DNA of 64,000 bases from assembly GCA_041573795.1 (NCBI GenBank), contig JBFFQB010000001.1, positions 18,876 to 82,875 of the forward strand, in the 5' to 3' direction. The translations under genes and the position numbers were made by a program. Below are positions 3,682-23,868 of this stretch, piece after piece (the stretch's first letter is position 1; every line of letters begins with the position of its first letter). The DNA comes from Anaerolineales bacterium. GTDB taxonomy: Bacteria; Chloroflexota; Anaerolineae; Anaerolineales; E44-bin32. Under the pieces are notes generated by a model. The model saw nothing but the letters and a program-made list of their open reading frames with translations. It did not search any database and had not been told where the DNA came from.

Positions 3682-4968
3682 GTGGATTTTCAAACCATTT
3701 GTGTCCTTGGTTTGGGTTACATCGGTTTACCTACAGCGAGCACTTTTGCCACACACGGCCTGCGAGTCGTGGGGGTGGATGTAAACGAACGGGTGGTGGA
3801 AGTGTTGCGTAATGGGGAAGTGCACATTCACGAACCCGGACTTCGAACCTTGGTCCAGGCTGCATTCCGTTCAGACAACCTCAAGATCAGTGAGGAGCCC
3901 GAAGAGGCGGATGCGTTTGTGATTGCGGTTCCGACCCCAATACTGAGCGATAAACGTGCTGATCTGCGTTATGTTGAGGCAGCCGCTGAATCGATCTCGC
4001 CTCTCTTGCGAGCAGGGAACCTGGTTGTGCTGGAATCGACCTCCCCACCACGCACGACCTTGGACAGGCTGGCGCCCATTCTTGAACACAGCGGACTTAA
4101 GGCGGGGGAGGACTTTTACCTGGCTTATACTGCCGAGCGAGTTTTGCCCGGGAAGATCCTTCAGGAGCTGATCGAGAATGCCCGTGTGGTGGGCGGGGTT
4201 AACCGAGCCTCGGGGGAGGCCGCCCGGGCACTCTATTCCACCTTTGTCCGAGGTGAAATCCACCTTACCGATGCTACTACGGCCGAGATGGTTAAACTGA
4301 TGGAGAACACATACCGCGACATTAACATCGCAGCCGCGAACGAGTTTGCCCGCTTGGGAGAGGCTTTTGGCGTGGATATCTGGCAGGCGATCGCGCTCGC
4401 CAATCTCCATCCAAGGGTGAACATTCTTCAGCCTGGTCCCGGTGTTGGCGGCCACTGCATAAGTGTAGATCCCTGGTTTCTCGTCGAGGCTGCACCTGAT
4501 ATCAGTCAACTCATACAGCAAGCCAGAGTTGTGAATGATGGCCAGCCAGATTATGTCGTCGCCTTGATGCAGCGAGCACTGGGAAGGCTCAAGGGAAAGA
4601 CAATTGCAGCATTAGGATTGGCTTATAAAGCCAATGTGGATGATTTACGTGAAAGTCCAGCGGTAGCGGTTGTAGCCCGATTGGTACAGGCTGGTGCTAG
4701 CGTCCACACCTTCGAGCCCTATGCACCGACAGCTGAGGTGGAAGGCGTAAAAGGATTTCAATCGCTCGATTCCGCCATAGAAGGTGCGGACGCCATCTTA
4801 TTGCTTGTGGATCATAAACAATTCAAGACATTAAAGCCTGAGGTTGTTGCGGAGCGCATGCCTGGTAGGATTGCCGTCGATACCCGAGGGGTATGGTCCG
4901 AAGATGCCTGGCAAGCAGCTGGATTCGCTCTTTTTCAGCTGGGTGTAGGAAAGGCTCCATTAGAATAG
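3682..4968 (+). CDS. wecC: nucleotide-sugar 6-dehydrogenase (UDP-ManNAc / UDP-GlcNAc dehydrogenase, WecC/WbpA-like)
   Basis: 428 aa. N-terminal Rossmann GLGYIGLPTA and catalytic-Cys motif GVGGHCISVDPWF. Adjacent to a 2-epimerase. Substrate assignment is inferred from that neighbour only. Confidence 0.85.
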   Translation: MDFQTICVLGLGYIGLPTASTFATHGLRVVGVDVNERVVEVLRNGEVHIHEPGLRTLVQAAFRSDNLKISEEPEEADAFVIAVPTPILSDKRADLRYVEAAAESISPLLRAGNLVVLESTSPPRTTLDRLAPILEHSGLKAGEDFYLAYTAERVLPGKILQELIENARVVGGVNRASGEAARALYSTFVRGEIHLTDATTAEMVKLMENTYRDINIAAANEFARLGEAFGVDIWQAIALANLHPRVNILQPGPGVGGHCISVDPWFLVEAAPDISQLIQQARVVNDGQPDYVVALMQRALGRLKGKTIAALGLAYKANVDDLRESPAVAVVARLVQAGASVHTFEPYAPTAEVEGVKGFQSLDSAIEGADAILLLVDHKQFKTLKPEVVAERMPGRIAVDTRGVWSEDAWQAAGFALFQLGVGKAPLE

Positions 4969-4970
4969 CG

Positions 4971-6092
4971 ATGCGCGTACTGACCGTTCTGGGAACGAGG
5001 CCCGAAGCCATCAAGATGGCGCCAGTGATTCGGCGGCTTCAACAAACTGAAGGGATTCAATCGCGGGTTTGTGTTACGGCACAACACCGCCAGATGCTGG
5101 ATCAAGTCCTGGCGCTCTTCGAGATCCAACCAGATATCGACCTAAATCTCATGATCCCTGACCAGTCCCTGGCTGAGCTGAGCGCGGCGATATTCGCAGG
5201 GCTGGACCCAGTCATCCGCGCTGAAAAACCTGATTGGCTGCTCGTGCAGGGTGATACCACCACGGTGATGATTGCGGCAATCCTGGCCTATTACAATCAA
5301 GTAAGTATCGGACATGTCGAAGCCGGTTTACGCACTGGTGATAAATGGCAACCATTTCCGGAAGAGATCAACCGCAAGGTGGCCGGTGTTCTAGCAGACC
5401 TGCATTTTGCGCCGACCGAGCGCGCGCGCAAGAACCTGCTTGCTGAAGGGGTGCCGGAGGAACGCATAGTGGTTAGCGGAAATCCGGTCATCGATGCACT
5501 TCTTGATGTGGTTGAGCAACCATATCAGCCTGAAGGTCCACCCTTAAGTGAAATTCCGCAGGATCGAAGCGTGATCCTGGTCACTGCCCATCGCAGGGAG
5601 AACTTCGGTGCGCCCTTTGAACGGATTTTCACCGCCATACGCACACTGGCGAAGGAGTATGCAGACAAGATAACGATCATATATCCGGTGCACCTAAATC
5701 CAAATGTTCAAGAACCCGCGCAGCGGATCCTGGGCAACTTGCCCAACGTCAACCTGGTCAAGCCCCTCGACTACCTGCCGATGGCATATTGGATGAAGCG
5801 TGCCACGCTGATCCTGACCGATTCGGGTGGTTTGCAAGAGGAAGCGCCAGCTTTAGGGACGCCGGTTCTGGTATTGCGTGAACGCACAGAGCGCCCGGAG
5901 GCGCTGGATGCTGGAACCGCTAAGCTGGTGGGCAGCGATCCTGAGCGGATCCTGTCGGAAACGCGCATCCTGCTGGATGATCCCAAGGCGCACCAGGCGA
6001 TGGCACAGGCCACGAATCCTTTTGGGGATGGTCATGCTGCCGAGCGCATCGTGGGCGCATTGATCGACAAAGGCCTGCCATCAAAGACATGA
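4971..6092 (+). CDS. wecB: UDP-N-acetylglucosamine 2-epimerase (non-hydrolysing), WecB/WbpI-like
   Basis: MRVLTVLGTRPEAIKMAPV..., HVEAGLRT, TDSGGLQEEAP motifs. ATG 4971 lies 3 nt after the wecC stop. The track start at 4893 is an out-of-context extension. Confidence 0.92.
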   Translation: MRVLTVLGTRPEAIKMAPVIRRLQQTEGIQSRVCVTAQHRQMLDQVLALFEIQPDIDLNLMIPDQSLAELSAAIFAGLDPVIRAEKPDWLLVQGDTTTVMIAAILAYYNQVSIGHVEAGLRTGDKWQPFPEEINRKVAGVLADLHFAPTERARKNLLAEGVPEERIVVSGNPVIDALLDVVEQPYQPEGPPLSEIPQDRSVILVTAHRRENFGAPFERIFTAIRTLAKEYADKITIIYPVHLNPNVQEPAQRILGNLPNVNLVKPLDYLPMAYWMKRATLILTDSGGLQEEAPALGTPVLVLRERTERPEALDAGTAKLVGSDPERILSETRILLDDPKAHQAMAQATNPFGDGHAAERIVGALIDKGLPSKT

Positions 6093-11058: not shown

Positions 11059-11717
11059 TTCGCCGGATCCTGGAATGGGCCCTGACCATTGCGAAAAGGC
11101 TGGTGGATGACACGATCCCCGAGAAGGATTTGCACGCCTTCCTGCGTAAGAATCTGATGGACCTTGATGCCCGGATCAAATCGGGTGAGGTTTCGATCGA
11201 CGATCCTGCGCTTGGAACCATCTATGAGGGGGTGGATCGATTACGCCGACAAGGATTTTCCGATCTTCCCGACTTTAAATTGGCTACAACATCCAGCGCT
11301 TTGATCAAACCAGAAGGTATGGTGAGATTAGCAGAACCGATCCTTCACCAAGGGATAATTGCCATTGGCCTCCTGGAGAAGACTTTGCTGCAGATGGAGC
11401 AAAATGTAGCACTGGATGAAAGTCAACATCAGAATATGGAAGCCTTGCTTCGCCATATCGAAATTCGACGCCAGGGCGGTTTGGTCTTTAATGGCCAATC
11501 ATCAAACCATGATCGTTGGCTCGCTGTAGCGGTTTTAAGTGCCCTGTTCAGCCGATATGCTGCAGGCGAATGTGATTACCGCTTCTTAAATTCGGCCTTG
11601 AAACTCAATGATTGGGCTTTTCGCTACTTCCGCAAGCGACAAGATCAACCTGGGGGGCTTCCCTATCTAAGGGCGGTCCTTGAGTTAGAAGCGACGCTGT
11701 TGGAGATGACATCCTGA
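11055..11717 (+). CDS. hypothetical protein (alpha-helical; no family recognised)
   Basis: 220-aa ORF coupled to both neighbours (ATGA 11055, TGATG 11715-11719). Confidence 0.6.
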   Translation: MIRRILEWALTIAKRLVDDTIPEKDLHAFLRKNLMDLDARIKSGEVSIDDPALGTIYEGVDRLRRQGFSDLPDFKLATTSSALIKPEGMVRLAEPILHQGIIAIGLLEKTLLQMEQNVALDESQHQNMEALLRHIEIRRQGGLVFNGQSSNHDRWLAVAVLSALFSRYAAGECDYRFLNSALKLNDWAFRYFRKRQDQPGGLPYLRAVLELEATLLEMTS

Positions 11718-12514
11718 TGCGTGTCGCCCTCTTTGCCCCAACATCGAGGAGTTTATACTCTCGTTTGGTTGCATCTGCGATAATTCAACAGGAAAAAATT
11801 GAGCTTGTAGGCATCTTTGTGCGACACCTTTGGTCGATTAAACGCATACGAACGGATTTGCGACGTGAAGGACCGCGTTTACTTCAAAAGGTCTATGAGA
11901 AACTGATCGCACCTGAAGCAATCTCTCAGGGAGAGGCGAACCCTTTAGTAGACGTGGCGAATGAGCGCTTGCTAAATTTTCGGGATCTCATCGATATGAG
12001 CCGCAGGAGCGGCATCCCCTTTTACCGGGTGCGAGACTTTAACTCGAAGCGAACTGAAGCTTCCCTGAAAGGGCTTAAACCCGACCTGGTTGCCTTCACA
12101 GGAGGCGGACTCATTCGAAAGAACATACTAACGGTACCTGCACAGGGGGTCCTTAATTGTCACTCGGGTTTGCTGCCACGTTTTCGCGGCATGGACACCC
12201 TGGAGTGGACAATCCTTGAAGCGCAGGGAGCACTTCCCCAGGTTGGGCTGACCTTGCATTTCATGGATACAGGCGTCGACACTGGCCCCATCCTGCGCCA
12301 ACATCGGGTGGAGTTGAATCCAGGAGAAAGCCTCAACGCTGTCCGAAAACGTCTGGAGCCCGAAATGGTACAGTTGATGTGCCAAGGTGTGGTCGACCTG
12401 CAGCGCGGCATCCTTAAAGCAATTCCACAAGAAAAGTCTGCTGGACGACAATACTTTGTTATCCACCCACGCCTGCAAGAGAAAGCTGAGATGAAGCTGC
12501 AGCGCAGTGCCTGA
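11717..12514 (+). CDS. formyltransferase-family protein (stand-alone catalytic domain, sugar N-formyltransferase/Fmt-like)
   Basis: 265 aa. LNCHSGLLPRFRGMDTLEWTI matches the N-x-H-x-x-LLP-x-x-RG...D formyltransferase core. No Fmt C-terminal tRNA-binding domain. Confidence 0.75.
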   Translation: MRVALFAPTSRSLYSRLVASAIIQQEKIELVGIFVRHLWSIKRIRTDLRREGPRLLQKVYEKLIAPEAISQGEANPLVDVANERLLNFRDLIDMSRRSGIPFYRVRDFNSKRTEASLKGLKPDLVAFTGGGLIRKNILTVPAQGVLNCHSGLLPRFRGMDTLEWTILEAQGALPQVGLTLHFMDTGVDTGPILRQHRVELNPGESLNAVRKRLEPEMVQLMCQGVVDLQRGILKAIPQEKSAGRQYFVIHPRLQEKAEMKLQRSA

Positions 12515-12567: not shown

Positions 12568-12628
12568 CGCCTCGAAACTCACCCGGGATTGAGGCTCTTA
12601 TCATCCCTCAACTGCTGTGAAGGAAATT

Positions 12629-14785
12629 ATGAAGCAAGTTGTCCAAGATATACGCAGTGGTGAAACGAAGCTTGTTGACGTTCCGGTACCGGCTGTGAAA
12701 CGCAGAACAGCACTCGTCCGAAACCGGGCATCTTTGGTTTCTGCAGGCACCGAGCGAGCACTGGTGGAGTTTGCAGGCAAAAGCCTGGTTCGGAAAGCGA
12801 AGTCACGCCCCGATCTTGTCCGGCAGGTGCTTGATAAAGCCCGTAGGGAAGGGCTGCTTACAACCATCGATGCCGTGATGAATCGCCTGGACCAGCCTCT
12901 AGCCCTGGGATACTCATCGGCGGGGATAATCGAGGCGTTAGGCGAAGAGATGGAAGGTTTTCAAGTAGGGGATCGGGTCGCCTGTGCAGGAGGGGGACAC
13001 GCTGTACATGCGGAGTATGTTCTAGTCCCCAGGAATCTAATCGCACCCTTACCACAAACCGTCGATTTTCAGGCGGGTGCCTTTGCGACAGTGGGCGCCA
13101 TCGCATTACACGGTTTTCGGTTGGGCGAGGCAGGGGTCCGTGATCGTGTAGCCGTAATTGGAATGGGGCTGCTGGGGTTGCTCGCTGCCAGTATTGCCCG
13201 AGCTGCAGGCTGCGCCGTCATGGGCATTGATGTCGATCGCGATCGGGTTGAACAGGCAAACAAACTTGGCATTGAGACTGTGTTGCGGGAGCAAGCCGAG
13301 GAGGCTTCGCTTAGCTTCACCGATCATCGGGGCTTTGATCTGGTGCAGATCTGTGCTGACACACCCGCCGATGATACTGTCGAGCTGGCAGGCGCCATAG
13401 CGCGTGATCGTGGGGTTGTGGTATCCACAGGCGTTGTGGGCACACATTTACCCCGAAATTTGTATTTCGAAAAGGAGCTGCGCTTCACTGTATCTCGCTC
13501 CTATGGCCCAGGACGTTATGACCCTCGATATGAAGAGAGTGGTGAAGATTACCCTTACGGCTACGTTCGTTGGACTGAAGGGCGAAATATGCAGGCTTTC
13601 CTCGAATTGATTGAAACCAATAGGCTGGATGTTGCACCTTTGATAACGCATGAATTCCCCATTGAAGATGCACTGAAAGCCTACACTTTGATTACGGGCT
13701 CAGGGGATGGTCTGTACACAGGTGTTCTGCTGACATATCCCGACAGACCAGATGAGACTCCAGAACGGAGAGTTGCGCTCAAAGCAGTTCGTCCGGCTAC
13801 GGAGGAAGCTGTGAAGCTGGGCATGCTCGGTGCGGGGAATTTTTCTGGCACTGTCCTGTTGCCCGCGATCAAACGCGTCGCCGGCATTGAATTGGTGGGG
13901 ATTGCCTCAGCCGGGGGGCGTACGGCAACACAAGTAGGTAAGCGATTTAAGTTTAAGTACGCCGCTACGGACACTGAGCAATTGATCAACGATGAGGGCA
14001 TCAATACCTTGGCCATCCTCACACGTCATCATCTGCACGCACAACTTATCCTGGCTGGATTAAAGGCTGGCAAGCACGTATTCTGTGAAAAGCCACTAGC
14101 TTTGAATCAGGATCAGCTCAATGAAATTCAGACCGTCCTGGCATCGAGTTCGAGATTATTGATGGTTGGATTTAACCGCCGCTTTTCCCCCCATGCAAAA
14201 CGGCTGAAAGCATTCTTAAGCACAAGCGATGCGCCCATGGCTATGCAATATCGGGTGAACGCCGGGGTATTACCCGCCAATCACTGGCTTCATGATCCTG
14301 AGCAAGGCGGCGGCCGCATTATCGGGGAGGTTTGCCACTTTGTGGACCTCTTAACCTTTCTTAGTGGGTCACCCCCTATCCGGGTGAGTGCTAGCGCGTT
14401 GCCCAGCGTGGGCGATTACGTTGAGGATAATGTTATCTTGACCTTCTCATTTGGGGATGGCTCTGTTGGGACCGTAAACTACTTCGCTAATGGAGATCGC
14501 TCACTTCCGAAGGAACGCCTGGAGGTGTTTCAGGCTGGAAGAGTAGCCATTCTGGACGATTTTCGGCAGCTTGCCTTGATTGCTAATAGTCGAAGGCGTA
14601 CCTTTAGATCAAGGCTCCGACAGGACAAAGGACATCAAGGTGAATGGGAAGCGTTCGTGGATGCAATCGTGAATTCGCAGGAACCGCCCATTGCCTATGA
14701 TCAACTGTTTGCCGTGACCCGTGCCACCTTCGCGGCTGTTCAAGCCTTGCGTACGGGCGAGTCGGTTTCGATCACAACCCTCTGA
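12629..14785 (+). CDS. bi-domain oxidoreductase: N-terminal MDR/Zn-alcohol-dehydrogenase-like + C-terminal Gfo/Idh/MocA
   Basis: MKQVVQDIRSGETKLVDVPVP start. GHAVHAEYVLVP and GMGLLGLLAA (MDR Rossmann). The second half has MLGAGNFSG...CEKPLAL (Gfo/Idh/MocA EKP motif). Confidence 0.85.
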   Translation: MKQVVQDIRSGETKLVDVPVPAVKRRTALVRNRASLVSAGTERALVEFAGKSLVRKAKSRPDLVRQVLDKARREGLLTTIDAVMNRLDQPLALGYSSAGIIEALGEEMEGFQVGDRVACAGGGHAVHAEYVLVPRNLIAPLPQTVDFQAGAFATVGAIALHGFRLGEAGVRDRVAVIGMGLLGLLAASIARAAGCAVMGIDVDRDRVEQANKLGIETVLREQAEEASLSFTDHRGFDLVQICADTPADDTVELAGAIARDRGVVVSTGVVGTHLPRNLYFEKELRFTVSRSYGPGRYDPRYEESGEDYPYGYVRWTEGRNMQAFLELIETNRLDVAPLITHEFPIEDALKAYTLITGSGDGLYTGVLLTYPDRPDETPERRVALKAVRPATEEAVKLGMLGAGNFSGTVLLPAIKRVAGIELVGIASAGGRTATQVGKRFKFKYAATDTEQLINDEGINTLAILTRHHLHAQLILAGLKAGKHVFCEKPLALNQDQLNEIQTVLASSSRLLMVGFNRRFSPHAKRLKAFLSTSDAPMAMQYRVNAGVLPANHWLHDPEQGGGRIIGEVCHFVDLLTFLSGSPPIRVSASALPSVGDYVEDNVILTFSFGDGSVGTVNYFANGDRSLPKERLEVFQAGRVAILDDFRQLALIANSRRRTFRSRLRQDKGHQGEWEAFVDAIVNSQEPPIAYDQLFAVTRATFAAVQALRTGESVSITTL

Positions 14786-14798
14786 GATTGCACAACGT

Positions 14799-16934
14799 AT
14801 GGTTATGCGCCTGCTTCGCGCCTTGCAAGAGTTGGGTCTGCTAACTTTGAGCAAGTATGCCTTATACAGCTTGGCACTCCGCAGCGGGTACTATCGCTGG
14901 CGGTTGCCAGTGCAATCGTGGTCGCAGATTAATCTATCCGACCTGCTTCGCAGCAAGATACCAAACAACCCTGAAGATTACGCTGCTTATCGCAAGGAAA
15001 ATCAAACAACATCAATTTTCAAGCTTGATCCGGGACAGCAGCCTGTTCTCCAGAAGGCGAGAAGAAGGATCGAATCTGAAGCGAATTCGATCAGCGAGGG
15101 TAGCTTTCAACTTTTTGGAATTGACAACGTTGAGCTTGGTTCTCCGCCAGGTTGGCATGCCTATGCCCCTCTGGCTGGTGCTAGTGGCGCTGCTCCGATG
15201 CAGGATCACCGTCATTGGAGTCTTTACACGCTCGAAGACTTGCCGCATGACGTGAAACTGCTATGGGAAGCTTCGCGGTTCGGGTGGGTTTACCCTTTGG
15301 CACAGGCCTACGCATTCAGCGGAGAAGACCGTTATTTCGATGATTTTTGGACCCTGTTCTCTTCCTGGCTTGATGAAAATCCACCGCAGGTGGGATTGCA
15401 TTGGTACTCAGCCCAGGAAGTCGCCATTCGCTTGATCGCTTTGCTGTACGCGTTTCATACCTTCTCAGACAGGCTCAATGAATTCCCTGAAGGGTATGTG
15501 AAACTTCTTGCTGCGATTGCAATCCACGCACAGAGGATTCCACCCACCTTGTCCTATGCAGAAGCCCAGAACAACAACCACCTGCTGGTGGAAAGCGCGG
15601 CGCTTTATCTGGTCGGCACAGCGCTTCCAGAATTGAAGAGTGCTGCAAATTGGAGGCTGAAGGGGCGCCGTCTCTTTGATAGGAGCGTTGAAAAACAGAT
15701 CTTTCCTGATGGTGGTTATGTTCAGCACTCATCCAATTATCAACGACTGGCATTGCAAGTTGGCATCCTGGTTGCCCATGCAGCCGAAGTTGAGGGGCAG
15801 CCATTGAATGAGATGGCGCTTAAAGCGCTTAGAGCGATGGCAGCATGTCTGGCGGCCTTGGTGGATGAAACGCAAGGGACCAGCCCTAACTTCGGGCCCA
15901 ATGATGGCGCTATCTTAGTCCCCCTCAGTGCACGACCGTTCGCAGATTTTCGGCCCACAGTCCAGGCGGCCTGGCAACTGCTCTTGGGTGAGCGATGCTA
16001 TCCTCCCGGACCATGGGATGACTTTGCTGCATGGCTGGGTGTTGGGAAGGAAGGGGATAAACTCCCCACTTCAGAAGTTGTTGCGCTAACATCTGTCGAC
16101 CTGCCCTACGCCGGACTATATACTGCCCGAAAAGACAGGCTAAGAGCATTTCTTCGGGCGGTGACGTTTAGAAATCGGCCCGGGCATAGCGATCAACTGC
16201 ATTTGGATATCTGGTACGGTGACGTCAATCTTGCCCGTGATCCGGGAACGTATCTTTACAATGCTTCTCAGCCCTGGGACAACGCATTATCCGGTTCCTG
16301 GTGTCACAATACGGTCACCGTTGATAGACGAGACCCCATGCTCAGGGCCGGGCGATTTCTCTGGCTATCCAGGTCTCATGCGCTAGCGAATAGGTACCGG
16401 CTGGGTGCCGAAGCGCCCATTGAACTGTTGTTTGCTCGTCACCGTGCCCGCCAATGGCCAGGGCTGCAACATCAACGCTCAGTGGCAATCCTGGGAAGCG
16501 ATATCATCATTGTCTCCGACGATATCGTCGGCCAGGGCAGGCACCAGCTTACCCTCAACTGGAATTTGGTCGACCTGCCATGGCAAGTCGGGTCTGATAG
16601 GATCACGTTGCGCCATGAAGCCTTCCAGACCTCTCTTGATTGGTCAGTGGAAGGTGGGTCTTGGGGTTTATACCGGTCGGGAAAATGTGTTGACGGTGAT
16701 CCTGTCGTTGAGAATCCGGCTACCTTTGGATGGCATTCTCCTACCTATGCACAGAAAGTACCGGGCTTGCAATTGGTTATCACAACCGATCAGCAGCTTC
16801 CGCTGCGCATGATCAGCACCTGGAGCTTTGAGGGAGCGGATACAAGCAAGCTCAACATCGGCTGGCTACCTATCGAGGAAAACCGAGTTGCGTTTAAAGC
16901 TATAGCATGGGGTCCGCACGAGTGGGCGATTTGA
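14799..16934 (+). CDS. heparinase II/III-like (alginate-lyase superfamily) protein
   Basis: About 711 aa. The (alpha/alpha) toroid-like N-half has ...NNHLLVESAALY...GGYVQHSSNYQRLAL..., and the beta-rich C-half has HSDQLHLDIWYG and WCHNTVTVD, typical of Hepar_II_III. ATG 14799 follows the stop at 14785. Confidence 0.8.
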   Translation: MVMRLLRALQELGLLTLSKYALYSLALRSGYYRWRLPVQSWSQINLSDLLRSKIPNNPEDYAAYRKENQTTSIFKLDPGQQPVLQKARRRIESEANSISEGSFQLFGIDNVELGSPPGWHAYAPLAGASGAAPMQDHRHWSLYTLEDLPHDVKLLWEASRFGWVYPLAQAYAFSGEDRYFDDFWTLFSSWLDENPPQVGLHWYSAQEVAIRLIALLYAFHTFSDRLNEFPEGYVKLLAAIAIHAQRIPPTLSYAEAQNNNHLLVESAALYLVGTALPELKSAANWRLKGRRLFDRSVEKQIFPDGGYVQHSSNYQRLALQVGILVAHAAEVEGQPLNEMALKALRAMAACLAALVDETQGTSPNFGPNDGAILVPLSARPFADFRPTVQAAWQLLLGERCYPPGPWDDFAAWLGVGKEGDKLPTSEVVALTSVDLPYAGLYTARKDRLRAFLRAVTFRNRPGHSDQLHLDIWYGDVNLARDPGTYLYNASQPWDNALSGSWCHNTVTVDRRDPMLRAGRFLWLSRSHALANRYRLGAEAPIELLFARHRARQWPGLQHQRSVAILGSDIIIVSDDIVGQGRHQLTLNWNLVDLPWQVGSDRITLRHEAFQTSLDWSVEGGSWGLYRSGKCVDGDPVVENPATFGWHSPTYAQKVPGLQLVITTDQQLPLRMISTWSFEGADTSKLNIGWLPIEENRVAFKAIAWGPHEWAI

Positions 16935-16935
16935 C

Positions 16936-18147
16936 GTGGAAATCCTACTGATACATCAGGCTTTTACGGCATTGGATGAACCTGGTGGGACGCGGCATCA
17001 TGAATTAGCGCGCCATCTTCAAAATTTGGGCCACCAACTTACCATTATTACGGGTCAGGGAAGCTACCTCACTGGGGAGCGCACAACAGCAGGCAGCGGG
17101 GTTGTGCGGCAGGTGGATGACGTGGGGGTAATCATCTTGCGTATCCCTGGGTATCTTGCGTGGCATCGCTCATTTTTCCACCGCGTATTGAGTTTTCTCA
17201 GTTTTATGGTTCGGGCGTTCTTAGAAGGGCTGCGTGCAGGCGAGGTTGAACTTGTGTGGGGTACGTCTCCTCCGATCTTCCAGGCTGTCAGCGCAGCCCT
17301 GCTGGCGAAATGGCGCCAGGTCCCATTTGTGTTAGAAGTACGAGATCTCTGGCCCTATTTTGCCATCGCCAGTGGGGTGCTGCGGTCAAAGCTGCTCATC
17401 GGCATGTCAAACTGGCTTGAACGAAGGCTATATCAGGCTGCAGATGTGGTAGTCGTAAACTCACCAGGGTTCAGCGAGTATGTCAGTCAGCGTGGTGCGA
17501 AGCGCGTTGAAGTTATCCCGAATGGTGTTGACTGCAATACAGACTTAGCGGTAGAGGTTAAAGAAGATCTGCGAGAGCAACTGGGTATTCAGGAAAGTTT
17601 CATCGTTGTCTATGCGGGTGCACATGGATTGTCAAACGATCTGGTAACAGTCCTGAAGGCCGGCGCGTTGCTTAAAGCGCGAGAAGACATTCAGCTGGTA
17701 TTGATTGGAGCAGGTAAAGAAAAGGCGAATTTAGTGGCAAGGACTCAGGCTGAGAAGCTAACCAACGTCCATTTTGTGGATCCTGTCCCGAAGATGCATA
17801 TGCCCGCAATACTTGCACAAGCAAACGCGGGTCTGGCAATATTGATGGCCATCGATGCATATAAAACGACGTTTCCGAATAAGGTATTTGATTACATGGC
17901 GGCTGGACTCCCGGTTCTTTGTGCGATCGACGGCGTCATTCGAGAAGTGGTTGAGCAAGGAGCAGCTGGCGTATTCGTAGAACCTGGAAACCCCGAAGCG
18001 CTAGCGCAGTCGATACGGATGCTTGCGGAGGATCGAGAGCGAGCCACAAAGATGGGCGCGAATGGCCGCCGTTGGGTTTGCGACCATTATGACCGTAGCG
18101 CGCTGGCGATTGATCTCGCCACGATCATGCAAGGCCTACTCACCTGA
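16936..18147 (+). CDS. glycosyltransferase family 4, WbuB/WcaI-like
   Basis: 403 aa. MEILLIHQAF...EPGGTRHHELARHL N-terminus is typical of WbuB-like GT4. GTG start 1 nt after the upstream stop. Confidence 0.82.
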   Translation: MEILLIHQAFTALDEPGGTRHHELARHLQNLGHQLTIITGQGSYLTGERTTAGSGVVRQVDDVGVIILRIPGYLAWHRSFFHRVLSFLSFMVRAFLEGLRAGEVELVWGTSPPIFQAVSAALLAKWRQVPFVLEVRDLWPYFAIASGVLRSKLLIGMSNWLERRLYQAADVVVVNSPGFSEYVSQRGAKRVEVIPNGVDCNTDLAVEVKEDLREQLGIQESFIVVYAGAHGLSNDLVTVLKAGALLKAREDIQLVLIGAGKEKANLVARTQAEKLTNVHFVDPVPKMHMPAILAQANAGLAILMAIDAYKTTFPNKVFDYMAAGLPVLCAIDGVIREVVEQGAAGVFVEPGNPEALAQSIRMLAEDRERATKMGANGRRWVCDHYDRSALAIDLATIMQGLLT

Positions 18148-18159
18148 CATTGTTCAATC

Positions 18160-18828
18160 ATGAGAGACGATGAGCAGATCCCTGAGATGCGAAAACTAGC
18201 GGGTTTCAAACTTTTTCCCAGCGGCATTCCAGTTTCAAAACGCCTATTGGATCTTCTGCTGACAATACCGGGATTGGTGCTTGTGAGCCCATTTATGCTC
18301 ATCATCGCCTTGCTGATACGCTGGCGTTTGGGGAAGCCGGTCATCTTCCAGCAAGATCGTCCCGGCTTAAAAAACCAACTCTTTGCAGTATATAAGTTCC
18401 GTACGATGACGGATGATAGGGATGAGTATGGAAACCTGCTTCCAGATGCGCAGCGCTTGCGTAAGCTCGGTCAATTCCTGCGCTCCTTTAGCCTCGATGA
18501 GTTGCCGGAATTGTTCAACGTAATGAAGGGAGAGATGAGTTTGGTTGGCCCCCGGCCACTGCTGGTCCAATATCTGGATCGCTACTCGCCTGAGCAAGTC
18601 CGCCGCCACGATGTGCTGCCGGGGATAACGGGTTGGGCGCAGGTCAATGGTCGCAATGCCCTTACCTGGGAAGATAAATTCGCGTTTGACGTTTGGTATG
18701 TTGACCATTGGTCCTGGTGGCTTGATATAAAAATTCTGGGGATAACGCTGTGGAAAGTGCTTACACGGGAGGGAATCAGTCAACCAGGCCATGCAACAGC
18801 CGAAGAATTCTGGGGCAGTGAAGGGTAA
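18160..18828 (+). CDS. small monotopic phosphoglycosyl transferase (bacterial sugar transferase, PglC/WbaP-C-terminal type)
   Basis: 222 aa. One N-terminal hydrophobic helix, KFRTM, DELPELFNVMKGEMSLVGPRPLL, PGITGWAQVNGRN motifs. Confidence 0.9.
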   Translation: MRDDEQIPEMRKLAGFKLFPSGIPVSKRLLDLLLTIPGLVLVSPFMLIIALLIRWRLGKPVIFQQDRPGLKNQLFAVYKFRTMTDDRDEYGNLLPDAQRLRKLGQFLRSFSLDELPELFNVMKGEMSLVGPRPLLVQYLDRYSPEQVRRHDVLPGITGWAQVNGRNALTWEDKFAFDVWYVDHWSWWLDIKILGITLWKVLTREGISQPGHATAEEFWGSEG

Positions 18829-18910: not shown

Positions 18911-18950
18911 GGTGCACAACAAGTGCCAAAAATTTACTAGGAGGATTGTA

Positions 18951-19136
18951 ATGAAAGAACCCCTTGAATTCTATGATGTGAAGTCCAAGACCAAGTTCAC
19001 ATCCGCTGATTGGCGGATTGAGAAGAAAGTATCCGACAAGGGTCGTGTGCAGTTCTTTGCGGTGACAAAGGCGCCTGCGGGCACACACGAAGCTTGGCGT
19101 ATTGTTGCTAAGGACTTCGGCGAAGCAAATATGTAG
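18951..19136 (+). CDS. small conserved-looking hypothetical protein (61 aa, mildly basic)
   Basis: MKEPLEFYDVKSKTKFTSADWRIEKKVSDKGRVQFFAVTKAPAGTHEAWRIVAKDFGEANM. Strong RBS (TAGGAGGATTGTAATG). Followed by a 12-bp perfect hairpin. The 97-aa track ORF start (18843) lacks an RBS. Confidence 0.6.
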   Translation: MKEPLEFYDVKSKTKFTSADWRIEKKVSDKGRVQFFAVTKAPAGTHEAWRIVAKDFGEANM

Positions 19137-19273: not shown

Positions 19274-20194
19274 ATGAAATCCACCCCTGCTGATTCATTC
19301 CGGCTGATGCTGCAAATTCGGCGCTTTGAAGAACGAGTGCTCGAACTATTTCCACGCGGCTTGTTTTATGGAACGACCCACACCTACATCGGGCAGGAAG
19401 CAAATGCCGTTGGCGTGCTGCATTGGCTTGAAGAAAGCGATATTGTTGTCAGCAATCACCGATGTCACGGGCATTTTCTGGCTTATGGTGGTTCTATGCA
19501 CGGTCTGGCGTCTGAGTTGATGGGTCGCACAACCGGTATCTGTGCGGGACGTGGGGGCAGCCAACATATCCAGTGGCGAAATTTCTATGCCAACGGAATC
19601 CTGGGCGGAACGGTTCCCCTCGCTGTGGGCATGGCGCTTGCCGTGAAGAAGCAATCCCAGGGGTCGGTTGTTTTTTCCTTCATGGGCGATGGCACGCTTG
19701 GTGAAGGCGTGGTTTACGAGAGCTTGAATATGGCTTCCCTCTGGGAGCTGCCCGTATTCTTTGTGCTTGAGAACAACCGTTATGCCCAAAGCACGCCTAT
19801 TAAGCTTCATCTTGCCGGGGAAATTGCCAAAAGGTTCGAGGCTTTCGGGATCCGCACAATGCATATTGACAGTACAGATGTGGACCTCATCCGTAACACA
19901 AGTGAAGAATTAATCACCAGCGTGCGAAAGGCAGCAGGTCCAAGGGCGCTCATCATTGATACCTATCGCTTTGCGCCTCACTCAAAGGGGGATGATGTCC
20001 GTGATCTGGAGGAGATAGAGCAATTCAGGCGGAAAGACCCGCTGCAGCTTCAAGCGGCCAAGCTTAATCCGACAACGGTCGAGGAGCTTGAAACCGAGGT
20101 TATGGAACAGGTTGAACAAGCGTTCTCAACTGCACAGCAGGACCCCGTCGCAGACGCGGGCGCTGTCACAGCGGCTATGGATGAAACCGCATGA
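19274..20194 (+). CDS. thiamine-diphosphate-dependent 2-oxoacid (pyruvate/acetoin-type) dehydrogenase E1 component, alpha subunit
   Basis: 306 aa. LMLQIRRFEERV..., TPP motif GDGTLGEGVVYESLNMASLWELPVFFVLENNRYAQST (GDG-x26-NN). Confidence 0.88.
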   Translation: MKSTPADSFRLMLQIRRFEERVLELFPRGLFYGTTHTYIGQEANAVGVLHWLEESDIVVSNHRCHGHFLAYGGSMHGLASELMGRTTGICAGRGGSQHIQWRNFYANGILGGTVPLAVGMALAVKKQSQGSVVFSFMGDGTLGEGVVYESLNMASLWELPVFFVLENNRYAQSTPIKLHLAGEIAKRFEAFGIRTMHIDSTDVDLIRNTSEELITSVRKAAGPRALIIDTYRFAPHSKGDDVRDLEEIEQFRRKDPLQLQAAKLNPTTVEELETEVMEQVEQAFSTAQQDPVADAGAVTAAMDETA

Positions 20195-21186
20195 CGGGTA
20201 TATTGCAGGCGTTGAATGATGGATTGCGCCACAGCCTGGAAGCCTCCGCTGCGGTTTACCTGCTGGGTGAGGACATCCTTGACCCTTACGGTGGTGCCTT
20301 TAAAGTTGTTAAAGGGCTGTCATCGGACTACCCTGATCGAGTGATCACAACACCAGTTTCAGAGGCCGGCATTGTTGGTGTGAGTGTTGGCATGGCGCTA
20401 CGAGGCTTGCGACCAGTCGCAGAGATCATGTTTGGAGATTTCCTGATGCTGGCGGCAGATCAACTGATGAATCATGCCGCGAAATTTCGCTGGATGAGCA
20501 ACGACCAGGTGCGCGTGCCGATAGTTGTGCGCACTCCTATGGGGGGCTATCGGGGCTACGGACCGACACATAGTCAGACTTTGGAGAAACATGTTTTGGG
20601 TACGGCCGGGCTGCGCGTTCTCGCAGCCAATACGCTGGTGAACCCCGGAACAGTATTATCCCGGGCTATCCTGGAAGATGATGACCCTGTACTCTTTGTC
20701 GAGCACAAGCTGCTTTACCCCCAAATGATGTTCTCGGCGGGGAGCGAATTTGAAAGTCACCAGCTTCGTGGTCGTTATCCCTGGTCAATCCTGCGTATTG
20801 CTGGAGCACCGCGAGCGGATATAACGCTAGCAACATACGGTTATATGGCTGAGATCGGACGCGAAGTGATGGTTCGGTTGGCTTATGAGCGAGAGATCTT
20901 CGTAGAAATGGTGGTCCCAACGCAATTAAGCCCTTTCAGGCTCGATCCCCTGATGGAGAGTGCTGGGCGCACCGGAAGAGTTCTTGTGCTAGAAGAAGGC
21001 ACGTTGAATTTAGGCTGGGGGGCGGAATTGGCTGCCCGGCTCCTGGAGACACTTGATCAAGATATTCAATTTCGCCGAGTAGCCGCACGCAATATGCCCG
21101 TCGCAGCAGCGGCAAAGCTCGAGCAGCATGTGTTACCCCAGGAAGACGATATTTTTTCAGCTGCTCTCACTTTAATGAAGCCTTGA
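20191..21186 (+). CDS. 2-oxoacid dehydrogenase E1 component, beta subunit (transketolase-like Pyr + C-terminal domains)
   Basis: 331 aa. LLGEDILDPYGGAFKVVKGL...VITTPVSEAGIVGVSVGMALRGLRPVAEIMFGDF. ATGA overlap with the alpha-subunit stop. Confidence 0.88.
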   Translation: MTGILQALNDGLRHSLEASAAVYLLGEDILDPYGGAFKVVKGLSSDYPDRVITTPVSEAGIVGVSVGMALRGLRPVAEIMFGDFLMLAADQLMNHAAKFRWMSNDQVRVPIVVRTPMGGYRGYGPTHSQTLEKHVLGTAGLRVLAANTLVNPGTVLSRAILEDDDPVLFVEHKLLYPQMMFSAGSEFESHQLRGRYPWSILRIAGAPRADITLATYGYMAEIGREVMVRLAYEREIFVEMVVPTQLSPFRLDPLMESAGRTGRVLVLEEGTLNLGWGAELAARLLETLDQDIQFRRVAARNMPVAAAAKLEQHVLPQEDDIFSAALTLMKP

Positions 21187-21282: not shown

Positions 21283-22404
21283 ATGGCTGAGGCAGATGAG
21301 GTTCTAATCCCCTTGCTCAATCCCAATGAGCCCGAAGTCCAGATTGTCGAAACATTGGTAGAGAATGGACAAAAGGTTGTTCTTGGTGAAGTATTGTGCA
21401 TCGTTGAGACCACCAAGTCCTCCCACGAGGTTGCAGCAGAGCGAGCAGGCTACGTCGTGTCCTTCAATCACACACGCGGGGATAAGCTTCGAGCGGGCGA
21501 TCGATTGTGCTGGCTCGCTGAAAAGTCCGGATGGACAGCCCCGGCAGCGGTAGAGCCGGTTTCCGAGATGAGGCGTGAGGGAATCCCTCAAGGTATGCGT
21601 ATCACCGAACCAGCGTTGGAATTGGCGAAATCACTGGGGATAGAGCTTGAGGAACTGCCAGGCGACAGGCTTATCACCGAGGCGGAGGTACAGGGGGTCC
21701 TTCGGCAGCGAAAGGAAAAGGTCGTAATGCCTTCCGATCAGCCACTGGATAGCTCGACTCTTGTCATCTATGGCGGGGGTGGGCATGGGAAAGCATTAAT
21801 CGATCTGATTCGTGCAATAGGCTCGCATAGCATCGCCGGGATCATCGACGATGGTTTGGAGCCAGGGATGGAGATTATGGGGGTTCCCGTGCTGGGAGGC
21901 GCCGATAAACTTTCATCTTTATCGCAGGATGGTATCCGCCAAGCGATTAATGCTGTTGGCGGCATTGGGGATGTGAACCGTCGCATTCAGGTGTTCAAGC
22001 GTCTTGAGGCGCAGGCGTTTGTATTTCCGACTTTGGTTCACCCAAGCGCATGGGTTGAATCCAGCGCAGACTTGCGCGCAGGCGTTCAGGTTTTTCCGCA
22101 TGCCTATATCGGCAGCGAAGCGCAGGTCGGCTTGGGGGTCATTGTCAACACCAGCGCGGTGATTTCGCATGATTGTAGACTCCAGGATTATGTGAATATC
22201 GCCCCGGGGGCATTGCTGGCAGGTAATGTCTCCATCGGGGAGGGTGTGTTGGTGGGCATGGGGGTTACGATCAATCTCAATGTATCGGTCGGTGCGGGTG
22301 CAAAGATTGGAAATAGCGCAGTCGTGAAAACAGACGTCCCTGCGGGACAGGTCGTTCGGGCGGGAACTAGCTGGCCTCCAGAAACGAATGATCCTAGGAG
22401 GTAG
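21283..22404 (+). CDS. chimeric protein: lipoyl/biotinyl-type hybrid-motif domain + peripheral-subunit-binding-like segment + NeuD/PglD-family hexapeptide sugar acyltransferase
   Basis: aa 5-80: VLIPLLNPNEPEVQIVETLVENGQKVVLGEVLCIVETTKSSHEVAAERAGYVV...GDRL (hairpin Lys45 = nt 21415-21417). aa 107-140: ITEPALELAKSLGIELEELPGDRLITEAEVQGVL (PSBD-like). aa 160-373: LVIYGGGGHGKALIDLI...AVISHDCRLQDYVNIAPGALLAGNVSIGEGVLVGMGVTI (NeuD/PglD). Confidence 0.8.
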   Translation: MAEADEVLIPLLNPNEPEVQIVETLVENGQKVVLGEVLCIVETTKSSHEVAAERAGYVVSFNHTRGDKLRAGDRLCWLAEKSGWTAPAAVEPVSEMRREGIPQGMRITEPALELAKSLGIELEELPGDRLITEAEVQGVLRQRKEKVVMPSDQPLDSSTLVIYGGGGHGKALIDLIRAIGSHSIAGIIDDGLEPGMEIMGVPVLGGADKLSSLSQDGIRQAINAVGGIGDVNRRIQVFKRLEAQAFVFPTLVHPSAWVESSADLRAGVQVFPHAYIGSEAQVGLGVIVNTSAVISHDCRLQDYVNIAPGALLAGNVSIGEGVLVGMGVTINLNVSVGAGAKIGNSAVVKTDVPAGQVVRAGTSWPPETNDPRR

Positions 22405-22409
22405 CCTCT

Positions 22410-23609
22410 TTGACAGAAGAAAACGCTAACGGTTCTATGTCGATCCCCATGTCTTCCCCGGATTTAACAGAAGCCGAGCGAAACGCGGTGCTGGAGGTAT
22501 TAAATACATCTAGGCTGAGTATGGGACCTGAAGTGGAGAGCTTTGAGCATGCCGTTGCCAAGCGCGTTGGCGCCAAGCATGCCATCGCCGTCAGCTCGGG
22601 TACGGCGGGACTGCACTTGTGTGTCCGTGCGGTCGGGATAGGTGAGCGAGACCTGGTGATCACCACACCATTCTCGTTTGTTGCTTCGGCCAATGTGATG
22701 ATCTACGAGCGTGCCATCCCCGTTTTCGTTGATGTCGATGCTCATACCGGCAACATCGATCCGGACTTGGTCGCACAAGCGGTTGCGGATCTTCAAGCAG
22801 GTGGTGAGGAAGCATCGCGCTGGTTGCCGCGTAAGGGTGCAGAACAAGCTGGAAGCTTGAAAGCGTTGCTGCCCGTTGATGTATTTGGCCAACCGGCGGA
22901 TTACACGTCGCTGAAGGCGATCTGCCGGCAGCATGACTTGGTGATGATCGAAGACTCATGTGAAGCATTGGGCTCGATCTATAGCGGCACACCTGCTGGC
23001 ATGTTGGGCGACCTTGGAGTCTTTGCCTTCTACCCCAACAAGCAAATCACGACGGCGGAAGGGGGTATGGTCGTCACCGATTACGAGCCTTTTGCGGACG
23101 CGATCCGCTCAATGCGCAATCAGGGACGAGCGCCAGGTGATACCTGGTTGGAGCATACTTACCTTGGATACAACTATCGACTGGATGAAATGAGCTCTGC
23201 TCTTGGCCGTGTCCAGATGGAACGGCTCGATGAGCTGCTTGAGAAGCGTGAGAGAGTTGCTAACTGGTATCAAGTACGTTTGGAAAGCCTTCCTTTTGTT
23301 GAGCCTCTGGCCATGTCGCCCTCAACTGATCGCATGAGTTGGTTTGTCTATGTCGTTCGTTTTGAAAAAGGGGTCGACAGGTTTGAGGTCGCACAAGCGC
23401 TAAAAGCACGTGGGGTTCCTTCCCGTCCTTATTTTGTGCCCATTCATACCCAGCCCTACTTTATTGAGCGCTTTGGATACCAGACTGGCGATTTTCCGAT
23501 CACGGAGGATCTGGGGAACAGAAGCCTGGCACTGCCTTTTTCAGGTGTGATGACCGAGGCGCAGGTTAACTTCGTGGTTGAGCAAATCAACAAGGTGGTA
23601 AAATACTAA
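22410..23609 (+). CDS. DegT/DnrJ/EryC1/StrS-family PLP aminotransferase (PglE/WbpE-like nucleotide-sugar aminotransferase)
   Basis: 399 aa. MSSPDLTEAERNAVLEVL..., AFYPNKQITTAEGGMVV (PLP-Lys motif), GYNYRLDEMSSALG. TTG 22410 has an AGGAGG RBS 7 nt upstream (ATG 22437 is the alternative). Confidence 0.9.
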   Translation: MTEENANGSMSIPMSSPDLTEAERNAVLEVLNTSRLSMGPEVESFEHAVAKRVGAKHAIAVSSGTAGLHLCVRAVGIGERDLVITTPFSFVASANVMIYERAIPVFVDVDAHTGNIDPDLVAQAVADLQAGGEEASRWLPRKGAEQAGSLKALLPVDVFGQPADYTSLKAICRQHDLVMIEDSCEALGSIYSGTPAGMLGDLGVFAFYPNKQITTAEGGMVVTDYEPFADAIRSMRNQGRAPGDTWLEHTYLGYNYRLDEMSSALGRVQMERLDELLEKRERVANWYQVRLESLPFVEPLAMSPSTDRMSWFVYVVRFEKGVDRFEVAQALKARGVPSRPYFVPIHTQPYFIERFGYQTGDFPITEDLGNRSLALPFSGVMTEAQVNFVVEQINKVVKY

Positions 23610-23868
23610 GTGGCATTTGGTGCGAATAAGCTTGTGCAGTATGGGTGAGGTAACCACGAATTTAGCAACCGAGATTACGTGATACGCTCGAGCTATCGAG
23701 CGCAATCCCAAGCTCAAGAAGTCAAACCCAAAGCGTAAGCCAACTGTAAACCGAATTCAGCTTTCCGCTGATGTATTCTTTGGTGGCATCAAAGCCCTCA
23801 GGCAGGATGCGATTATTCATCCTGCCACTTTTCATGGAAGGTATATTGGACGCTGCTGTCTTCCGACA

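Follow-up and report, generated by a model that had tools for sequence, protein, structure and literature searches.

A lipoyl and subunit-binding module fused to a PglD-type sugar acyltransferase beside E1 genes in Anaerolineales: a probable route from 2-oxoacids to N-acyl amino sugars without acyl-CoA

To our knowledge, the core of the textbook E2 subunit of 2-oxoacid dehydrogenase complexes is always a chloramphenicol acetyltransferase-like acyltransferase that makes acyl-coenzyme A (acyl-CoA). E2 cores and left-handed beta-helix acyltransferases are both trimers with active sites between subunits, and two of the latter, LpxA and LpxD, take an acyl group from the phosphopantetheine arm of acyl carrier protein (ACP) to a UDP-amino sugar, so that this fold is able to take a donor bound to a carrier protein. 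In the biosynthesis of quinocarcin (QncN, QncL and QncM) and scleric acid (SclQ1-4), a lipoyl domain is charged with a C2 acyl unit by E1-like thiamine diphosphate (ThDP) proteins, and a dedicated acyltransferase hands this unit to a biosynthetic acceptor other than free CoA (PMC6335953). In the sugar acyltransferase VioB, His135 has been described as the catalytic base, the acetyl-CoA pocket sits between subunits, and the CoA phosphates are neutralized by R170, R189 and K206 (PMC9271549). Here, we analyze a stretch of 64,000 nucleotides from an Anaerolineales bacterium of the Chloroflexota (contig JBFFQB010000001.1, positions 18,876 to 82,875; referred to as the window, whose numbering is used unless another locus is named). 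Its gene at 21283-22404 (+ strand) encodes a protein of 373 amino acids, termed the fusion below, in which a lipoyl-type domain and a peripheral subunit-binding domain (PSBD) precede a PglD-type N-acyltransferase, and it lies directly downstream of genes for E1alpha and E1beta. The probable role of this protein is the acylation of an amino sugar of the cell surface, with a 2-oxoacid as the direct acyl source and no participation of acyl-CoA.

The open reading frame (ORF) of the fusion is uninterrupted, and a GGAG Shine-Dalgarno sequence is found 8 nucleotides 5' of its ATG. Its sequence is identical to that quoted in an earlier note on this DNA, which had proposed that a lipoyl domain and a PSBD are followed by a catalytic domain that is not of the E2 type. 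This domain order is borne out, and a search of 5.8 billion proteins for full-length homologues of the fusion retrieved more than 120 with the same architecture, 363-386 amino acids long and 52-74% identical. Those that carry a name are labelled only "NeuD/PglB/VioB family sugar acetyltransferase", "sugar O-acyltransferase" or "EpsM". When amino acids 1-150 alone were used as a phmmer query against 1.84 billion representative sequences, 136 matches were obtained at E<=1e-10, and most of them correspond to this same fusion.

The lipoyl-type domain comprises amino acids 4-80 (21292-21522, +), of which residues 19-76 are covered by Pfam Biotin_lipoyl (E=7e-12). Among PDB sequences, a profile of 39 full-length relatives detected all three E. 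coli E2p lipoyl domains with an E-value of 1.8e-23 and subsequently ranked human E2p, E3BP and E2o ahead of biotinyl carriers. In the AlphaFold2 (AF2) model, residues 4-79 form a flattened beta-barrel with a predicted local distance difference test score (pLDDT) of 75-92, which Foldseek superposes on the L2 domain of human E2p (3crk_C) with a template modeling (TM) score of 0.82 and a root mean square deviation (rmsd) of 1.6 A. The ETTKS hairpin is encoded at 21406-21420 and contains the predicted lipoyl-lysine, Lys45 (codon 21415-21417). All 78 orthologues taken from genome loci have E42, T44 and K45, and these residues are kept even in members that share only about 27% overall identity. The family consensus is E-[TSN]-T-K-[SA]; the biotinylation motif M-K-M does not occur in the hairpin in the alignment of the 78 orthologues. 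The lipoyl-type segment with a hairpin lysine at position 45, as originally read from the letters, is thus upheld by Pfam, profile search, predicted fold and conservation. A further suggestion, that an ETTK hairpin may evade the usual lipoate ligases, finds no support, since Thr44 is invariant in the family, and it is also undercut by a related protein, P0249 (see below), in which an ENTKA hairpin is joined to a genuine 2-oxoacid_dh core. Glycine-cleavage H proteins lack an Asp at position -1, yet they are lipoylated.

The second segment, at amino acids ~104-147 (21592-21723, +), is a divergent PSBD in which a helix, a 3-10 turn and a short loop are followed by a second helix. Pfam E3_binding gives no match to the fusion's own copy, and PF02817 matches 8 of 27 family members, with a best E-value of 3.8e-4. 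Among 177,635 PDB sequences, the two best matches of a profile of this segment are the PSBDs of T. thermophilus (2eq8_C, E=0.016) and P. aerophilum (1w4i, E=0.08). An hhalign comparison with ten PSBD sequences entered by hand resulted in a probability of 93.4% and an E-value of 2.6e-7 over 36 columns, with a deletion of three residues in the loop. Modelled by AF2 in isolation, the segment adopts the helix, 3-10 turn and helix with a pLDDT of 82.5. The five top Foldseek matches of this model among 350,542 PDB chains are PSBD/E3-binding domains, as are 17 of the 29 matches overall, with TM scores of 0.65-0.74 and rmsd values of 1.9-2.9 A; they include the E1-bound domain of G. stearothermophilus (1w85_I). 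The E-values are singly weak, which is no surprise at a domain length of some 40 residues, but the enrichment of PSBD matches is not. The segment is conserved over the 78 orthologues, with R106, P110, L114 and T132 being nearly invariant.

The C-terminal part of the fusion, 215 amino acids in length, scores 178.7 bits against TIGR03570 (NeuD/PglB/VioB) over amino acids 160-358, above the curated cut-off of 160.8, and is matched by both Pfam PglD_N (PF17836) and Hexapep (PF00132). It consists of a Rossmann-like, nucleotide-sugar-binding PglD_N lobe at amino acids 159-243 (21757-22011, +; PF17836 E=1.9e-12; pLDDT 88-94), with a GGGGHGK motif at residues 164-170, and a left-handed beta-helix acyltransferase domain at amino acids 247-365 (22021-22377, +) that is covered by Hexapep and TIGR03570. 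The latter domain ends at an invariant W364-P365, and the proteins stop 0-8 amino acids later. N. gonorrhoeae PglB-ATD, C. crescentus PerB, A. baumannii VioB and C. jejuni PglD are the closest solved relatives in both sequence and fold, at 24-32% identity. His296 of the ISHD motif (codon 22168-22170) is conserved in 78 of 79 orthologues and aligns with VioB His135, PglB His138, PglD His125 and PerB His141, the residue that was changed in the PerB H141N and H141A structures; the Asp that follows is aligned as well. Since Pfam gives no match to PF00198 (2-oxoacid_dh) in the fusion at E<=1, the core does not place the protein in the E2 family. By membership it is an acyltransferase of the NeuD/PglB/VioB family; by its proposed mechanism it works like an E2. 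At the position of VioB R170 the fusion has Asn331, kept in 78 of 79 orthologues, R189 is replaced by Thr350, and the C-terminal tail that bears K206 in VioB is not present in the fusion family, suggesting that the CoA nucleotide site may have been changed.

The gene for the PDH (pyruvate dehydrogenase)-like, ThDP-binding E1alpha (19274-20194, +; Pfam E1_dh E=4e-54) is followed by that for E1beta (20191-21186, +; Transket_pyr and Transketolase_C), whose start overlaps the E1alpha stop. Human PDH E1alpha (4.8e-47) and the T. thermophilus 2-oxoacid dehydrogenase beta subunit (5.7e-45), respectively, are their closest PDB matches. The family nearest to E1alpha, the pyruvate-type TIGR03182, gives 261 bits at a cut-off of 394, so that pyruvate is the best guess for the substrate without being established. 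Across 60 E1alpha orthologues, conservation extends to the ThDP motif GDG...NN and to the PHSKGDD His, which aligns with the GHS motif of human E1alpha; across 67 E1beta orthologues, it extends to the Glu of SEAG and the His of THSQ. In canonical E1s, the equivalents of these two His residues act in the reductive acylation of lipoamide. Judged from the alignments, the catalytic motifs of all three proteins are intact. The other predictions of the earlier note also stand: the shortened PSBD loop agrees with the three-residue deletion in the hhalign alignment, and the complete NeuD/PglD unit with the TIGR03570 score, the PglD_N and Hexapep matches and the aligned catalytic His. Two outcomes that it had named beforehand as speaking against the proposal are ruled out, as the N-terminal 150 amino acids are folded and lipoyl/PSBD-like, rather than disordered or non-homologous, and E1 genes adjoin the fusion.

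The E1 and fusion genes form part of a same-strand run that also includes a small monotopic phosphoglycosyl transferase of the PglC/EpsL type (18160-18828, +; Pfam Bac_transf E=1.1e-62) and a pyridoxal phosphate-dependent sugar aminotransferase of the PglE/PseC/EpsN type (22410-23609, +; DegT_DnrJ_EryC1 E=6.4e-108), which starts 5 nucleotides past the fusion stop. The NCBIfam family nearest to this aminotransferase is PseC, at 301.7 bits, under the cut-off. The aminotransferase would make the amino group that is later acylated, and the N-acyl amino sugar, once complete, is likely to be used by the phosphoglycosyl transferase. A terminator-like hairpin with a 9-bp stem at 23801-23826 (+) may mark the operon end; it stems from a consensus scan in which the number of sites was not above the shuffle expectation and is therefore a weak call.

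When a single genome was scanned for each species, relatives of the fusion turned up in 385 genomes, and the locus counts given here rest on the best 80 of these 385, which were probed by tblastn with the window proteins. All 80 loci contain a full-length fusion, and their names are nearly all of Chloroflexota (Anaerolineales, Anaerolineae, Bellilinea, Ca. Aquidulcis and "Chloroflexia"), with one labelled only "uncultured bacterium". E1beta is directly upstream of the fusion in 77 loci and E1alpha is upstream in 73, several of the misses being due to contig ends, whereas the DegT aminotransferase is found downstream in 59 and the phosphoglycosyl transferase upstream in 54. Clustering of all ORFs from the 80 loci identified only these four genes as widely conserved partners; what it returned beyond them were syntenic housekeeping genes and a heparinase-like/family-4 glycosyltransferase subset. 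More distant members were also inspected, and E1 genes were immediately upstream in every one, while the other neighbors differ. The E1alpha-E1beta-fusion triad stands alone in L081, is accompanied by two NDP-sugar dehydratase/epimerases, a DegT aminotransferase and a methyltransferase in L082, and by a PIG-L deacetylase, an ATP-grasp and a GNAT protein in L083. L087 and L088 show the order 4,6-dehydratase, E1alpha, E1beta, fusion, DegT and Wzx flippase, and in L089 a fused E1alpha-beta of 642 amino acids precedes the fusion beside NeuB and a CMP-sugar-synthetase-like gene in a nonulosonic-acid cluster. The recurrence of the same triad amid differing neighbors points to a portable unit within amino-sugar pathways. 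CP070785.1, CP070764.1 and OY969772.1 are examples of genomes with the triad.

With the domain architecture and the tight, conserved gene linkage established, the most economical reading is that the fusion would keep the E1-docking and acyl-carrying parts of an E2 while using a different acceptor chemistry. E1alpha, E1beta and the fusion would then constitute a small 2-oxoacid-dehydrogenase-like machine devoted to glycan tailoring. In the sequence of events that we infer, the alpha2beta2, ThDP-dependent E1 would decarboxylate a 2-oxoacid, most likely pyruvate, and reductively acylate the lipoyl group on Lys45, the acyl group probably being acetyl. The short-loop PSBD would hold E1, and possibly E3, on the fusion, which is expected from its solved relatives to trimerize through the beta-helix. 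The acyl-dihydrolipoyl arm would enter the PglD-type donor channel, which in the relatives is occupied by the pantetheine arm of acetyl-CoA, and His296 would deprotonate the amine of a nucleotide-linked 4-amino-4,6-dideoxy-hexose supplied by the DegT aminotransferase, so that the acyl group would move directly to the nitrogen. The phosphoglycosyl transferase would then put the N-acyl sugar on the lipid carrier, and the dihydrolipoyl arm would be re-oxidized by a housekeeping dihydrolipoamide dehydrogenase (E3) encoded elsewhere. That E1 and the fusion work together through the lipoyl arm is very likely; to the full CoA-independent mechanism we assign a probability of roughly 0.6.

Several observations weigh against this mechanism. 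The lipoylation of Lys45 in the ETTK hairpin is a prediction from the sequence. Two of the three arginines that are critical for E1/E3 binding in the G. stearothermophilus PSBD align with L112 and L130 in the hhalign register, so that docking may differ or be absent. No E3, lipoate ligase or lipoyl synthase was found among the scanned window ORFs or among the genes conserved across loci. Three of the 80 loci (L049, L068 and L072) have a fusion with unrelated neighbors and no nearby E1; their E1 may lie elsewhere in those genomes. The beta-helix has a low confidence in the monomer AF2 model (pLDDT 41-61). The difference at the CoA site is only suggestive, because PerB and PglB also vary at these positions, and Lys349, next to the position of R189, is invariant. 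Loss of the CoA site was considered as decisive evidence and rejected, given that relatives that use CoA vary there as well. Finally, if the acyl group were plain acetyl, a gain over the abundant acetyl-CoA is not evident, which is one reason to keep a non-acetyl reading open.

Three other explanations were considered. Acyl-CoA could still be the immediate donor, with E1 and the lipoyl arm only raising the local acyl supply by way of a relay from lipoyl to bound or free CoA, at the beta-helix site or on a separate E2, and from there to the sugar. The acyltransferase domain belongs fully to the NeuD/PglB/VioB family, all solved relatives of which use acetyl-CoA (PMC9271549), and the invariant Lys349 beside the position of a CoA-phosphate-binding Arg fits such a relay. 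We nevertheless regard it as unlikely: the fusion has no PF00198 domain to move the acyl group from lipoyl to CoA and none is conserved nearby, the tail with the CoA-binding Lys of VioB is missing and R170 has become a nearly invariant Asn, and the covalent joining of arm and acyltransferase would be rendered pointless.

Improbable, in our view, is that the fusion is a conventional N-acetyltransferase that depends on acetyl-CoA and whose N-terminal extension is vestigial or regulatory, next to an E1 with an unrelated function such as two-carbon keto-sugar branching. The attachment of a two-carbon branch has been proposed for the E1-like AviB1/AviB2 in avilamycin biosynthesis, and some sugar clusters do contain E1-like pairs that have no lipoyl partner. 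L087/L088 carry a second, transketolase-like pair (see below); the three loci with a fusion lacking a nearby E1 can also be read in this way. However, the Lys45 hairpin is invariant and the PSBD conserved in the 78 orthologues, and both persist at about 27% identity, which argues for a working swinging arm. Furthermore, the E1 retains the His residues that canonical E1s use for the reductive acylation of lipoamide, and the E1-E1-fusion order is held where all other neighbors differ. A biotinyl carrier for carboxylation would also be compatible with Pfam Biotin_lipoyl, which spans both carrier types, with single-domain scores for biotinyl carriers that come close to those for lipoyl domains (8hz4_E, 8.6e-8, versus 2dnc, 5.5e-8) and with the Foldseek search, which returns the biotin carboxyl carrier protein as well. 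The hairpin consensus without an M-K-M motif, the lack of a biotin carboxylase or carboxyltransferase in any neighborhood examined, and the conserved E1alpha/beta partners and PSBD, which are specific to lipoyl systems, make this reading very hard to sustain. None of these alternatives can account at the same time for the invariant hairpin Lys, the PSBD and the strict order in which the two E1 genes and the fusion follow each other.

One relative bears on the origin of the fusion. P0249 (L085 55-3079; see also L086) is a short E2 of 363 amino acids with an ENTKA hairpin and a short-loop PSBD-like segment, which keeps a genuine 2-oxoacid_dh catalytic domain and lies behind a fused E1alpha-beta of 646 amino acids. 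The presence of the same kind of N-terminal module on an E2 core suggests that the fusion arose by a catalytic-domain swap. P0249 may be an evolutionary intermediate or part of a Qnc-like biosynthetic E1/E2 pair; the contigs are short.

A number of further features were noted in the individual loci. L002 (JAIWHF010000009.1), from a metagenome-assembled genome (MAG) of a Methanosarcinales archaeon, has a complete Anaerolineales-type cassette with an order and identities like those of L006 and L011, and is probably a bacterial contig mis-binned in an archaeal MAG. E1alpha-E1beta fusions of 642-646 amino acids with all four E1 domains are encoded at 6070-7998 of L089 and 55-1995 of L085. A 592-residue "fused E1" in L036 was discarded, as it contains only E1alpha and part of E1beta and is possibly an assembly or frameshift artefact. 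A protein of 423 amino acids is encoded between E1beta and the fusion at 6715-7986 of L021, and gaps of about 1.4 kb occur at the same place in L034, L047, L050, L056, L063 and L065. An E3 inserted at this position was considered and rejected, since the L021 insert does not look like E1, E2 or E3; from its translation, it looks like a membrane-anchored repeat protein. The family member P0225 (L083 2251-3849) is 532 amino acids long, with about 160 extra C-terminal residues without a domain match; it shows neither a PglD_N match nor an SHD motif in the alignment and adjoins a PIG-L deacetylase, a metallophosphatase, an ATP-grasp and a GNAT protein. Downstream of the flippase, L087 (9023-10701) and L088 (6935-8613) have a second, split transketolase-like pair, composed of a Transketolase_N protein of 258 and a Transket_pyr protein of 301 amino acids. 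An epimerase-GT2 fusion and a methyltransferase come next. The pair may catalyze a separate ThDP-dependent sugar-tailoring step.

In the window, Pfam identified upstream of the cassette a formyltransferase-like gene (11717-12514), a fusion of a zinc-type alcohol dehydrogenase and a GFO/IDH/MocA oxidoreductase of 722 amino acids (12617-14785, +), a heparinase-II/III-like protein of 737 amino acids (14721-16934, +) and a group-1/family-4 glycosyltransferase (16936-18147). The ORFs of the 722- and 737-residue proteins overlap by 65 nucleotides, and the heparinase-like gene and the family-4 glycosyltransferase recur upstream of the cassette in 22-23 of the 80 loci. The translations of ORFs at 3682-6092 resemble those of a UDP-sugar dehydrogenase and of a UDP-GlcNAc 2-epimerase on inspection. 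Given the sugar-type genes along 3.7-23.6 kb, this stretch is read as one long polysaccharide locus. No nucleotide-sugar 4,6-dehydratase was detected among the window ORFs scanned, whereas the divergent loci L082 and L087/L088 have one beside the triad. The interval from the phosphoglycosyl transferase to E1alpha contains a small ORF (18948-19136, +; about 61 amino acids, MKEPLEFYDVKSKTKF...HEAWRIV...) that has no Pfam or NCBIfam match; it is found by tblastn at the same position in 25 of the 80 loci with 49-95% identity, co-occurs with the heparinase-like/family-4 glycosyltransferase subset of loci and is a possible cassette member in a subset of genomes.

In a literature search that mostly covered open-access full text, no report was found of a lipoyl domain in connection with PglD, NeuD, bacillosamine or nonulosonic-acid enzymes, or of E1 in such gene clusters. 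The idea that the lipopolysaccharide locus of Legionella pneumophila contains PDH-like genes was dropped, as PMC3766260 mentions none. The fusion is proposed to have kept the logic of 2-oxoacid dehydrogenases while exchanging the fold of the core and turning to a new acceptor. If this is correct, it would represent a natural case in which a swinging arm and a docking domain are joined to an acyltransferase of unrelated fold, passing an acyl group straight to a biosynthetic amine, and a CoA-independent route to N-acyl amino sugars. It may account for some of the unusual N-acyl groups on bacillosamine- and legionaminic-acid-type sugars. The E1 genes beside the fusion could be read as pyruvate dehydrogenase and mislead metabolic reconstructions from Chloroflexota MAGs, and for engineering the fusion could be a compact scaffold that couples 2-oxoacid decarboxylation to amide formation. 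More tentatively, and with considerable doubt, the triad may be a portable CoA-independent module that converts 2-oxoacids into sugar amides, in which the 2-oxoacid specificity of E1, and not the acyl-CoA pool, would set the acyl group, a non-acetyl one in at least some lineages. In that case, groups such as propionyl, glycolyl or branched acyl would be expected on bacillosamine-type or nonulosonic-acid sugars, the beta-helix trimer would form the center of miniature 2-oxoacid dehydrogenase complexes of a new class, and an unrecognized source of N-acyl diversity in bacterial surface glycans would have come to light.

Clear parallels exist between the fusion and the E2 subunits of the pyruvate, 2-oxoglutarate, branched-chain 2-oxoacid and acetoin dehydrogenase complexes, namely, the lipoyl hairpin Lys, the linkers, the PSBD followed by an acyltransferase, the gene position directly after E1alpha/E1beta and, in the solved beta-helix relatives, an active site between subunits (PMC9271549). 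The fusion differs from them in its PglD-type beta-helix core in place of the chloramphenicol-acetyltransferase-like 2-oxoacid_dh fold, in its predicted acceptor, a sugar amine instead of the CoA thiol, in a short-looped PSBD without two of the classical arginines, in having no E3 gene nearby, and in an expected trimeric core rather than a 24- or 60-mer. With the Class I N-acetyltransferases PglD, PerB, VioB and PglB-ATD it shares the Rossmann-like lobe, the beta-helix and the aligned catalytic His; as in pglC-D-E and epsL-M-N, its gene is also paired with those for a small phosphoglycosyl transferase and a DegT aminotransferase. These known enzymes use acetyl-CoA, whereas the fusion lacks the K206 tail, has Asn in place of R170 and is set apart by its 150-residue lipoyl-PSBD extension and its linkage to E1. 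The similarity in sequence to LpxA and LpxD is weak, and those enzymes depend on a separate phosphopantetheine ACP and have no E1, in contrast to the fused lipoyl domain described here. The quinocarcin and scleric acid systems have an E2-type catalytic domain, an ACP thiol acceptor and a proposed ketose phosphate donor; the fusion has a beta-helix and a predicted sugar amine acceptor, with no E2-type catalytic domain of its own and no ACP-like family among the Pfam matches of the scanned cassette genes. QncN/QncL/QncM and SclQ1-4 nevertheless provide a precedent for the fusion, as in both cases the E1/lipoyl logic is diverted into a biosynthetic pathway.

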